64,000 nt of DNA from Pseudomonadota bacterium. GTDB taxonomy: Bacteria; Pseudomonadota; Gammaproteobacteria; JAIEPX01. Made by a program: the position numbers. Positions 39,001 through 42,000 of the stretch are shown in pieces (position 1 is the first letter of the stretch; each line of letters starts with the position of its first letter). The DNA is taken from assembly GCA_029777855.1 (NCBI GenBank), contig JAKORL010000116.1:1735-65734 (forward strand), in the 5' to 3' direction.

Positions 39001-42000
39001 ACTGGAGAAACTCACTCTTCGACGCATGAAGGTGTTCGAAACGGTTAAAATACCTAAGAAAATAAAAGAGCTTGAAGTACAGAATTGTTATTCTGTCGGC
39101 AGGGTAGTAGACTTTAAAGATTTTCATGATTTAAACGATATAGCATTAAGAGAGTGTGCTAATTTAGAGGTTGTAGAGAACCTTCCGGCTCAGCTTACCC
39201 GTTTCGCAATTATTAACTGCGCTGAGCTTTGTTCTTTTAATTTGAATAGCATATCAAGACTATATGCCTTATGTTTATATTATGAAGTTGGTCAAAAAAC
39301 TCAACTCAGCTGGGGCAGAAATTTATCTATCGGTATTATTTATTTAAATTCTATAGCCTATGCTGAAGAGGGCATTGTTCAATTTATACGCTCTTTGAAA
39401 GGTGGCAATATTGAAGTCATTGTAGAGTCAGGCGACAAATTCGTCGCAACAGGTAACGAAAGCAGAGTTACAGGTCTTCGTATTCAAGATAATAATACGA
39501 TTTCGGGCGAATTATCTCTTAGACAGTTCACCCAGCTAAGAAGGTTGGATGTTTCAGGTTGTAATAATATTACGGCCATTACAGATTTCCCTAAATCTAT
39601 AAAAGAAATAATATTACATCGAAACTCATCGCTAAAAATGCCGGATTTGGATGGTTTTTTAGATACACTAGAAAAGCTTCAGATTGGAGATTGTAAATTA
39701 ATAAATCCTGCTCCTGCGCTCGAAATCAATACTATTGCCAGACCTGGTCCTGTGCGCGTCGTCCAGATCAGTGCTCGGAAGGAAAACGATATTGATTTAG
39801 ATACCCTACGAAGTGAAAGACTTAAAAAACAAAATCGTGAAATAGCCGAGAAACGGTACAATACCTTCCAGGCTTATGTTGATAAAATGCTTCAAGATAA
39901 TGTTGGGTATGAGGAAGCTTCGTCATTTGGATCAACGACAGCCGATGGTATAGGAATAACTAACCGACATAAGTACAATACAATGAAAATTTCAGGGTCT
40001 ACAGTTTACGCCCCAGACTCTAAAACAGGTTTTGTAACGCGTTTTCACGATAGTAACAATAAAGCTGCTGGAGACGAGCAAAATAATTTCTTGATGGTTT
40101 ATGATAAACGTAATTTATTGGTCAATAATTATTTTCGTTTTTCTGTATATAACGCCATTGAGTGCGATGTGCGTCGGCGATCTCTTCTTTTTTGTTATCG
40201 GCCTAAAGAAGTTCGGCGAACTTCATTGGTTCGATATCAAAATTGTGATCGACTTGGGGATGATACGCTTCATGATTTAAAGCATTATGTAAGTTTAGAT
40301 CAAAACTGGGCGATGGCCTATGCTGAATTTGATATAAAGCCAGGGCAAGAGATTACATTGGTTACAACGCCAGTTTTATATCCTCCTGATGAATTATTCA
40401 TTTATTGTAATGATGCTAAAGATTTAGATTTAATATTGGATGTTACGGAGCGCAAAGTCAGTGTTGCATTAAAAGCTGGAGTTGAATCTAAATGTGTAAA
40501 ATTAGCATATCGATTCCGGATGCAAGATTGTTATCTTCTAGAAAATTTCGGCGATGATCTGAAGCTTTGTCTTTCACCAAAACCCCTATTAAAGGCCGAT
40601 TTTATTGCTGAGCTTGAAAAAGTGATCAGTGCGGTTGCTGAACTAAAACCACTGACCAGATCTGATATTAGTCTTCGAGAAAAACTGGCCTGTTTATTTG
40701 AATTTTGTCGAAATTTTAATCAAGAAGATACTACAGATGAAAACTCTAGTGATACTCTTGACATCATTCTTTCACAAATTAAAAGTTCAAAAGGAGTCTG
40801 TCGACATCGCTCACAAGTATTTATGGTGCTTGCTCATTATTTAAATATACCAGTGAGTCTTTTTTCTAATGGTAAACATATGTTTGGTGAGTTGCCTTTT
40901 TATTCGCGATTCGGCTTTGTGCGACACGGCGTATGTCTTGGTGGAGGGGATGTATTGGATTTAGTGAAGAAATCGAGTAATCCTCAGCCTGAGCCAGTAA
41001 ATCCCTTTATTAAGGTGATCACTGAGCCAGAGCCCACAAAGAGTGTTGCAGTTGCAGAGCCGAAACCCAGCATAGAAGCAGAAGCAAAAGCAAAAGCAAA
41101 AGCGCGTGAAGAAGCAGAAAGAAAAGCACGAGAAGAGGCTGAGGCAAAGACTCGCGCAGAAGCCGAAAGAAAAGCCAAAGAAGACGTTGTGGCAAAAGCG
41201 CGAGAAGAAGCGGAAAGAAAAGCGCGAGAAGAAGCCGAGGCAAAAGCCCGTGAAGAAGCAGAAAGAAAAGCGCGAGAAGAAGCCGAGGTAAAAGCCCGTG
41301 AAGAAGCGGAAAGAAAAGCGCGAGAAGAAGCCGAGGTAAAAGCCCGTGAAGAAGCGGAAAGAAAAGCGCGAGAAGAAGCCGAGGCAAAAGCCCGTGAAGA
41401 AGCGGAAAGAAAAGCGCGAGAAGAAGCCGAGGTAAAAGCCCGTGAAGAAGCAGAAAGAAAAGCTAGAGAAGAAGCTGAGGCAAAAGCTCGCGATGAAGCT
41501 CAGAGAAAAGCTAAAGAAGCAGAAGCCAGAAGAATTGCCGAGGAAAAAGCACTGGAAGCGAGAGAACCATTCCCTGCTGTTAAAATTATTACATCGATTC
41601 TTCCTTTGTTATCAAAAGAGGCAGCGCATGCACCATTATTGCGCTTACCCAATAATTTAGAGCCTTTAAAAGTCTTTGCCAGAATACGTGAAGAATTAAG
41701 TGGCGTTGTTAATTCTCCGCGAGCTAAGAATGTTATTTACATTCATAATCCCACGGATCTTCGTCGCTATATGAAATCAGTGAAAATTGCAGACGGTGAA
41801 AGAAAATTAGTTGCAGGGCCGCTGCGACAATTATTAGAAGAGGGTGGGATTATTGTTATCAATTGGACTGAATTTTCCAAGCAACAAAAAGCAAGCTACA
41901 TGTCGATGCTCGAGCAACCTTCAGGTACTCTGATGGGTGTTCCAGTGACAGCTTCTGTGAAAATTATTAGTTTAATTCAAGATAAATTCAGAACAGGGCC

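Follow-up and report, generated by a model that had tools for sequence, protein, structure and literature searches.

A giant open reading frame (ORF) encoding 3,281 amino acids is located on the forward strand of a 64,000-nucleotide stretch of DNA from the gammaproteobacterial assembly GCA_029777855.1 (contig JAKORL010000116.1, positions 1,735 to 65,734; this whole stretch is here named the window). In this study, we analyzed a segment of the ORF for which a first-pass annotation, made from the sequence alone, had proposed a transglutaminase-like or papain-fold catalytic triad. On the basis of conservation among homologs and of a structural model, window positions 40595 to 40969 encode a real transglutaminase-like (TGL), papain-fold cysteine-enzyme domain, for which catalysis is predicted. 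By its sequence the domain is homologous to TGL enzymes of the PF01841 type, and it fails one of their defining features, the Asp of the catalytic triad. Furthermore, about 1,100 residues of dynein/midasin-type AAA+ modules, absent from the earlier annotation, are fused downstream of the domain and therefore change the likely mechanism of the protein. A public protein collection contains an entry (P0001) identical to the 3,281-residue window protein, which is built as follows.

35255..45100, + strand: giant ORF, 3,281 amino acids, carrying the flagged segment (uninterrupted ORF)
35255..36154, + strand: N-terminal conserved domain, residues 1 to ~300 (phmmer; seen in 54 family representatives)
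36155..39874, + strand: leucine-rich-repeat (LRR) region, residues ~300-1540, of variable length among relatives (Pfam LRR_4, LRR_EndoS, LRR_RPS2)
40088..40576, + strand: beta-sandwich domain before the TGL core, residues ~1612-1774 (AlphaFold2 [AF2] model residues 38-200, all beta, pLDDT >90)
40595..40969, + strand: TGL (papain-fold) catalytic core, residues ~1781-1905 (homologs, profiles, AF2, Foldseek)
41096..41511, + strand: charged helical linker (AKAREEAERKAREEAE)n, residues 1948-2086 (Tandem Repeats Finder and translation)
41750..45097, + strand: C-terminal dynein/midasin-type AAA+ (AAA_5-like) array, residues 2166-3281 (family profile, AF2, Foldseek, hhalign)

An exhaustive phmmer search of 1.84 billion representatives yielded 132 representative homologs at an E value of ≤1e-3, including 36 at ≤1e-10. 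In addition, one scan of species-representative genomes found a sole ortholog with 66% identity (here named L001), encoded in a metagenome-assembled genome labeled "uncultured Gammaproteobacteria". Conservation was counted in an alignment of 134 domains; a MAFFT alignment of 49 sequences (A1) and a profile of the whole family (A3) were used for the profile comparisons and structure predictions reported below. Among 133 aligned domains, Gly1847, Cys1849, and His1875 were each found 132 times. Cys1849 and His1875 are also present in L001 and correspond to the sole invariant columns of A1. The family motif reads G-v-C-R-H-R-s-x-a-F-m-l-L-A-r-y-l-G-v-P-a-R-x-v-x-N-e-x-H-a-F-c-E ... W-x-x-i-D-L-G-G-g. 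Since the Cys and His are nearly invariant across homologs, the flagged pattern is a conserved motif and not a coincidence. Cys, His, and Asp at loose spacings are common, and the spacings and the Asp named by the first-pass annotation turned out to be wrong, as might be expected of a structurally meaningless pattern that arose by chance in a long protein. Such an origin is nevertheless refuted by the 132 homologs with their nearly invariant Cys and His, by a confident model, and by matches to TGL folds, and we regard it as negligible. A word-indexed homolog search using the TGL region alone or alignment A1 found nothing, and a single-sequence search of the PDB with the TGL region returned noise only.

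The flagged catalytic stretch corresponds to window positions 40787 to 40969. The peptide described for it, SKGVCRHRSQVFMVLAHYLNIPVSLFSNGKHMFGE...GVCLGGGD, belongs to the reading frame of the ORF at 35255 to 45100, but it starts at residue 1845 (nucleotide [nt] 40787), where it opens with SKGVCRHRSQ, and not at nt 40780, which is one base out of frame and leads to stops. The catalytic Cys had been placed correctly at nt 40799 to 40801 (TGT, Cys1849), the proposed domain range of about residues 1780 to 1930 is accurate, and the segment does lie between LRRs (Pfam matches at residues 1257 to 1478) and a coiled coil (the repeat at nt 41096 to 41511). In contrast, the distances between the catalytic residues had to be revised. 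A His was expected about 33 residues after the Cys, whereas the only His with suitable surroundings (NGKHMFGE), His1875, follows Cys1849 by 26 residues. Likewise, the Asp sought about 20 residues after the His is the one in GGGD, Asp1899, which follows His1875 by 24 residues and falls in a variable column that holds Val in L001. The conservation expected of the triad among relatives is thus found for Cys1849 and His1875 (132 of 133 domains), but not for Asp1899.

Compared with Pfam, the window protein by itself stays below threshold for both relevant families, namely, PF14381 (EDR1/CTR1/ARMC3 peptidase-like; E = 0.016, 15.5 bits at a cutoff of 27, confined to profile positions 137 to 168) and PF01841 (Transglut_core; E = 0.088, 13.5 bits at a cutoff of 23). 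While the comparison with PF01841 that had been suggested as a check therefore falls short for the single sequence, it succeeds for its relatives: 38 of the 49 sequences in A1 match PF01841 at an E value of ≤0.01 (best, 3.3e-11), and 12 of the 49 match PF14381 at the same threshold. In the PDB, the A1 profile matched 3isr, a TGL protein of Cytophaga described as a "putative cysteine protease" (E = 1.4e-5), over the preceding beta-rich region and the helix of the Cys. Matches of the same profile to yeast and mouse peptide:N-glycanase (PNGase) were weaker (E = 0.024 to 0.09).

An AF2 model of residues 1575 to 1915, built with A1 (model m6d257caae0ef), reached a pLDDT of 86.0 and a pTM of 0.84. 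It consists of a beta-sandwich at model residues 38 to 200, followed by a helical/strand core. Cys1849 (model residue 275) is the first residue of the helix at 275 to 288, His1875 (model residue 301) immediately precedes the strand at 302 to 310, and residue 1894 (model residue 320) comes directly after the next strand, at 313 to 319. In the model, this arrangement of Cys, His, and residue 1894 is the papain/transglutaminase topology, and the papain-like alpha+beta fold anticipated at first pass is seen around the Cys and the His. A Foldseek search of the PDB ranked the periplasmic domain of Pseudomonas aeruginosa TgpA first (6g4h and 6g49; E = 1.4e-5, probability 1.00), followed by the TGL proteins 3kd4 and 3isr. 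The TM-scores are modest (0.36 to 0.42) and the root mean square deviations large, as is to be expected for an alignment of two domains with different hinge angles. Taken with the family-level Pfam matches and the PDB profile match, these results bear out the assignment of the segment to a transglutaminase-like papain-fold core.

The first-pass annotation had further linked the domain to deamidase and cysteine-protease toxins. Membership in such a family (CNF1, PMT, Cif/CHBP, OspI, YopT, or AvrPphB type), with a host GTPase or a protein of the ubiquitin system as the target, would suit the papain-like Cys-His chemistry and the probable effector context discussed below. However, the Pfam scans, the PDB sequence and profile searches, and the Foldseek list for the PDB contained no member of these families, and the link was not borne out. 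The matches obtained, i.e., TgpA, 3isr, 3kd4, PNGase, PF01841, and PF14381, represent a different branch of the papain-like superfamily, which makes this assignment very unlikely.

The residues at or near the predicted active site are listed below, with the aligned residues of yeast PNGase (Png1) in what we take to be the numbering of its triad (Cys191/His218/Asp235).

40799..40801, + strand: Cys1849 (TGT), predicted nucleophile, motif G-V-C-R-H-R (132 of 133 domains; helix N terminus; opposite Png1 Cys191)
40877..40879, + strand: His1875 (CAT), predicted general base, motif N-G-K-H-M-F-G-E (132 of 133 domains; precedes a strand; opposite Png1 His218)
40934..40936, + strand: Cys1894 (TGT), at the canonical third-residue (Asp) site of the triad (family column; opposite Png1 Asp235)
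40949..40951, + strand: Asp1899, the Asp named by the first-pass annotation, not conserved (Val in L001; column P22/E17/G14/D13)

The predicted active site has Cys1849 as the nucleophile, His1875 as the base, and Cys1894 at the third position, which orients the His.

The third position deserves closer consideration. In the family, the corresponding column (1894, 19 residues after the His, in the motif i-D-L-G-G-G) has the composition D100/E11/N10/Q4/C4/Y1, i.e., Asp, Glu, Asn, or Gln in 125 of 130 relatives. Instead, the residue is Cys in the window protein (Cys1894; VCLGGGD), in L001 (GVCSGGG), and in P0002. Overall, Cys occurs in this column in at least three separate lineages (P0001/P0002/L001, P0038, and P0108), whose nearest neighbors carry Asp, Glu, or Gln. 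A sequencing error is unlikely, since two base changes separate the Cys codon from either Asp codon and since the Cys is found in three independent sequences. Two other residues were considered as a compensating third residue and rejected: Asp1899, which is Val in the L001 ortholog, and Asp1902, which lies beyond the GGG loop and is moderately conserved (63 of 104). The remaining motif residues, R1850, H1851, R1852, F1856, N1872, E1879, and G1896-G1897, are all kept in the window protein.

One reading of these data is that the TGL domain of the window protein is a pseudoenzyme, in which the domain, after loss of the Asp at position 1894, does no more than bind peptides and keep substrates in place for the AAA+ array; the inactive TGL domains of ciliary proteins have been proposed to act in this way. 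The absence of the canonical Asp and the sub-threshold Pfam matches of the window sequence are compatible with this, and inactive TGL binding modules are known or predicted in, e.g., CC2D2A, EPB42, and FBXO21 (PMC3495828, PMC10318531). Nevertheless, we consider it unlikely. The nucleophile or the His is usually lost first, whereas Cys1849, His1875, and the surrounding motif are intact here. Moreover, the third position is naturally variable (Asp, Glu, Asn, Gln, or Cys), and the occurrence of Cys in no fewer than three independent lineages points to a variant that is tolerated and functional. From the composition of the column we infer that site 1894 needs a side chain able to form a hydrogen bond with the His and that Cys is a tolerated variant, which would make an active or differently regulated enzyme more likely than a dead one. 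For other enzymes with the TGL fold, a third residue different from Asp has been suggested, for example in the Cys-His-Ser triad of vasohibin (cited in PMC10318531). A natural Cys-His-Cys in place of Cys-His-Asp offers a test of the need of TGL enzymes for the third residue and of possible redox control by a thiol at this site.

We next turn to the C-terminal part of the protein. Most homologs are giants of 2,000 to 3,800 residues with one common plan, and a C-terminal region of ~1,100 residues is conserved from end to end in about 100 representatives. The A3 family profile matches eukaryotic midasin/Rea1 at an E value of 4e-52 in several stretches; the last AAA+ module aligned with Rea1 at 1029 to 1210 (1.3e-17), 1693 to 1852 (6e-15), and 1314 to 1514 (3.5e-6). 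Relatives of the window protein match Pfam AAA_5 strongly (P0012, 4.9e-17), and one degenerate upstream AAA+ module matches NorQ. An AF2 model of residues 2166 to 3281, built with A3, had a pLDDT of 88.4 and a pTM of 0.84. In Foldseek, this model of the array matched dynein motor domains over about 950 to 1040 columns (E ~2e-20, probability 1.0). Internal repeats were detected with hhalign (D~E, 97.7%; B~C, 92.8%; A~E, 49%), and about five modules are detectable in the array. Walker A and B motifs are kept in the last two modules only.

43727..43747, + strand: Walker A, KPGTGKS, of the penultimate AAA+ module; Walker B, APDEVN, at 43862-43879 (family consensus, LKGxPGVGKT ... LLLDEAN)
44528..44551, + strand: Walker A, GPSGIGKS, of the last AAA+ module; Walker B, IILDEID, at 44693-44713 (motif conservation)

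At least three AAA_5-like modules upstream of these are degenerate (VNWSNF..., I-x-NPP-x-D, VILNG...). From their motifs, two AAA+ modules still look competent for ATP binding and hydrolysis. In the penultimate module (nt 43724-43747, + strand; residues 2824 to 2831), Ser replaces the first Gly of the P loop, which is Gly in 77 of 78 sequences (LKSKPGTGKS versus LKGxPGVGKT), and Walker B reads APDEVN where the family has LLLDEAN. Judging by these substitutions, the ATP site of this module may be weakened. The Pfam and PDB profile results contained neither the MIDAS/vWA nor the linker nor the stalk/microtubule-binding domain of midasin and dynein. A tblastn search of 72,556 plasmids with the AAA array gave no match, and a word-indexed search with the last two AAA modules returned one fragment of 350 residues, named "hypothetical protein".

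The other parts of the protein vary in their conservation. The consensus of the N-terminal domain includes GPG..D.W, KKKII.S, VYLW.G, and Y.ILD; this domain (residues 1 to ~300) has no sequence match in Pfam or the PDB, and a single-sequence PDB search with it gave nothing credible. Many LRR structures are matched by the profile of the whole family, and the particular LRR stretch of the window protein is aligned by seven representatives only. The linker that joins the TGL domain to the AAA+ array is encoded by a 48-nt tandem repeat (8.7 copies, 88% matches). Since 5 of 132 representatives align to this segment, the length of the linker is probably variable. No signal peptide was found in the window protein, and its N terminus is not hydrophobic. 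The protein also lacks Pfam membrane domains, a statement for which no dedicated transmembrane prediction was made. At the C terminus, the family members have polar tails that vary among them, and the tail of the window protein contains EERHEEN.

Taken together, the alignments define a yet unnamed bacterial family of about 100 giant proteins, which consist of an N-terminal domain, variable LRRs, a beta-sandwich with the TGL domain, an optional charged coiled-coil linker, and an AAA+ array of ~1,100 residues. The TGL domain is known in kind, whereas the domain architecture is new. A literature search for bacterial proteins with fused TGL, LRR, and tandem AAA domains, or for midasin in connection with Legionella, found no description of the family. 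The database names retrieved for it (ten members plus the 350-residue fragment) are "hypothetical protein" or blank.

Furthermore, we examined the genomic setting. The gene is chromosomal, and its neighbors encode an oligopeptide ABC transporter, enoyl-coenzyme A hydratase, thiamine diphosphokinase, an HflK/C-NfeD pair, YchF, PriA, and RpiA. The following features of the window are of relevance here.

34895-34971, - strand: tRNA-Met (CAT), 283 bp upstream of the start of the giant gene
45234-45336, + strand: full-length thiamine pyrophosphate (TPP) riboswitch, 68.7 bits, 134 bp downstream of the giant gene
45558-46247, + strand: ORF for a thiamine diphosphokinase homolog (TIGR01378, E = 2e-36), downstream of the TPP riboswitch
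11966-13135, - strand: ankyrin-repeat protein (Ank_2, E = 1e-45)
59278-60174, - strand: patatin-like phospholipase gene

The ankyrin-repeat and patatin-like genes are of a eukaryote-like or effector type that is typical of intracellular bacteria associated with amoebae. Near members of the family, genes of the ankyrin-repeat, pentapeptide-repeat, and GerE/LuxR types recur. Ankyrin-repeat genes adjoin the homologs in three loci of relatives (L002, L005, and L006) and are present in the window, which makes four loci, and pentapeptide repeats are found in L004. No synteny of the window with L001 or L002 was detected, and the gene lists of L002 to L006 contain no constant neighbor and no vWA gene. 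The gene content, together with the low G+C content, fits an amoeba-associated intracellular gammaproteobacterium. tRNA genes are common integration sites; an origin of the giant gene in a genomic island next to tRNA-Met is nonetheless unsupported, as the G+C profile is flat across the gene at about 37 to 38%. To our knowledge, the kinase located downstream of the TPP riboswitch is not among the thiamine genes usually controlled by such elements.

Several other genes in these loci were noted in passing. A second giant ORF (15-8798, + strand; 2,927 residues) appears by eye to comprise an N-terminal adenylation (AMP-binding)-like region and pentapeptide-repeat-like and LRR-like stretches. The oligopeptide ABC transporter cluster is interrupted by a pair of genes at 26969 to 30851: one encodes a fatty-acyl-AMP ligase-like protein of 943 residues with extra N- and C-terminal regions (28020-30851, - strand), and the overlapping ORF (26969-28039, - strand) is weakly similar to endo-beta-N-acetylglucosaminidase H (E = 3e-8). 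A gene for an AbiEii-type nucleotidyltransferase toxin is located 8 kb downstream of the giant gene (53509-54492, + strand), with an overlapping, unannotated partner ORF (52728-53543, + strand). In L005, an AbiEii gene with a DUF6088 partner (2313-3266) lies about 350 bp upstream of P0005. The proximity of AbiEii genes to two family loci may be a coincidence or reflect a shared mobile context.

How might the parts of the protein work together? The LRR array would bind a target protein, in the substrate-recruiting role that vWA proteins have elsewhere, and the AAA+ array would use ATP to remodel, extract, or unfold the bound target. The TGL domain would then cleave or modify the target by peptidase, isopeptidase, deamidase, or transglutaminase chemistry, via a thioester on Cys1849 and with the participation of His1875. 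As a speculation, the basic, conserved R-H-R triplet beside the nucleophile suggests an acidic feature in the substrate. A precedent exists in an operon in which a MoxR AAA+ ATPase and a vWA protein are strictly associated with a TGL protein like YebA/TgpA and for which ATP-dependent degradation was proposed, with the ATPase unwinding substrates for cleavage by the TGL domain (Zhang and Aravind, PMC3495828). By analogy, the window protein could be a single-chain version of the partnership between MoxR AAA+ ATPases and TGL peptidases that was predicted for such MoxR-vWA-YebA/TgpA operons.

With regard to the place of action, modification of host proteins, as suggested in the first-pass annotation, is plausible because the protein has LRRs, eukaryote-like genes lie in its vicinity, and the gene lacks operon partners. 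On circumstantial evidence, a translocated effector is the most likely setting, since both a signal peptide and a conserved operon partner are lacking and since ankyrin-repeat, patatin-like, and pentapeptide-repeat genes are found nearby. We therefore favor, with moderate confidence, an explanation in which a TGL enzyme core, LRRs, and an AAA+ remodeling machine form one protein that is most likely a translocated effector of an amoeba-associated intracellular gammaproteobacterium.

Alternatively, the protein could work inside the bacterium, either as a self-contained ATP-dependent protease or chaperone, i.e., a fused MoxR-TGL quality control system, or as a conflict or antiphage sensor resembling nucleotide-binding LRR receptors (NLRs), with the LRRs as the sensor, the AAA+ array as the switch, and the TGL domain as the effector. 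The lack of a signal peptide agrees with this as well, and the known MoxR-TGL and MoxR-effector conflict systems act within bacteria (PMC3495828, PMC7159879). AbiEii toxin genes are found near the gene in L005 and downstream of it in the window, and the locus of the L003 relative, as far as examined, has CHASE2 cyclase and ShlB/POTRA neighbors and no ankyrin-repeat or other effector-type gene. However, PADLOC had no match to the window protein, its matches to two relatives were generic AAA ones, and there is neither a vWA partner nor a conserved operon. The AAA+ modules are of the dynein/midasin type and not of the STAND type (signal transduction ATPases with numerous domains). In addition, ankyrin-repeat genes occur in four of the examined loci, and the low G+C content (37%) is in line with life inside host cells, where LRR proteins commonly serve as effectors. 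Judged from gene and domain content, a host-directed setting, which comes close to an even chance, appears more likely than a role in internal proteostasis or conflict, to which we assign a minor but appreciable probability.

Several points weigh against the favored explanation of an effector with a TGL enzyme core. The canonical Asp is missing from the window protein, which by itself stays below the thresholds of both PF14381 and PF01841. We know of no characterized TGL enzyme with Cys as the third residue, and the activity could be weakened, lost, or changed. The sequence does not tell protease, deamidase, and transglutaminase chemistry apart. Furthermore, no secretion system genes are present in the window, and the C-terminal tail (…IEERHEENIVIQMV) resembles a Dot/Icm signal only loosely. 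Finally, no vWA domain or gene was found in the window protein or among the listed neighbors in the window and in L002 to L006, although the known MoxR systems have one.

Taken alone, the TGL domain adds one member to a superfamily that is already very large, and the wider interest lies in its fusion with the array. MoxR has been described as the closest prokaryotic relative of the AAA+ domains of dynein and midasin, and single-chain AAA+ arrays of the dynein/midasin type have been treated as a eukaryotic development (PMC3495828). For this reason, bacterial AAA+ arrays bear on the origin of dynein and midasin. Tentatively, the family could be a prokaryotic, single-polypeptide AAA+ machine of the dynein/midasin kind, fused to a TGL cysteine enzyme and an LRR arm that binds the target, and thereby a new class of ATP-powered extraction-and-cleavage or cross-linking effectors. 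Such proteins might themselves be bacterial relatives of the tandem-AAA protein from which dynein and midasin arose, or they might go back to the transfer of such a motor from eukaryotes to bacteria. If true, either origin would lend direct physical support to the proposal that TGL peptidases and the MoxR/dynein lineage have been functionally linked since ancient times. The decade-old prediction that MoxR ATPases cooperate with TGL peptidases becomes testable with one recombinant protein, and, if the protein is translocated, it would represent a new effector mechanism in amoeba-associated bacteria.

Among known systems, TgpA/YebA (PF01841; P. aeruginosa TgpA, 6g49/6g4h) is the best structural match of the window domain, although the PDB profile search gave no match to TgpA at the sequence level. 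In both proteins a beta-sandwich is followed by the TGL core, with the Cys at the N terminus of a helix and the His on the next strand. Both have an AAA+ partner of the MoxR clade, in an operon in the case of TgpA (PMC3495828, PMC3507681) and by fusion in the window protein. The transglutaminase domain of TgpA has Ca-independent transglutaminase activity in vitro (PMC3507681). TgpA is anchored in the membrane, its transglutaminase domain is periplasmic, and its triad is Cys-His-Asp, whereas in the window protein Pfam found no membrane domain and the third residue is Cys. Its AAA+ ATPase is a separate, single-module MoxR protein that acts with a vWA/DUF58 protein, whereas the window protein carries a multimodule array in the same chain and no vWA domain.

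The best sequence-profile match in the PDB, 3isr of Cytophaga hutchinsonii (Bact_transglu_N plus Transglut_core), which was also found with Foldseek and shares the layout of beta-sandwich and TGL core, is a small stand-alone protein of about 290 residues whose function is not known and which has neither LRR nor AAA+ modules. In yeast Png1 (1x3w), the triad residues lie opposite the Cys, His, and Asp of the family, with spacings of 27 and 17 residues compared to 26 and 19 in the window protein; the match is weak (E = 0.024). PNGase has zinc-binding and Rad23-binding domains and acts on N-glycans, an activity for which nothing in the window protein gives an indication. PF14381, the best single-sequence Pfam match of the window protein, aligns over about 30 residues around the G-x-C-R-H-R helix. 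Its domains are eukaryotic and usually fused to kinases or armadillo repeats, and the family has been classed with the TGL-type papain-like peptidases (PMC10318531).

As regards the AAA+ array, active and degenerate modules are mixed in dynein and RNF213, as in the window array (PMC7311170). Midasin/Rea1, dynein, and RNF213 are eukaryotic and combine six modules with a linker or stalk and with MIDAS, microtubule-binding, or E3 domains. The window array, in contrast, is bacterial, has about five detectable modules without MIDAS/vWA or linker, and is fused to the LRR region and the TGL domain.

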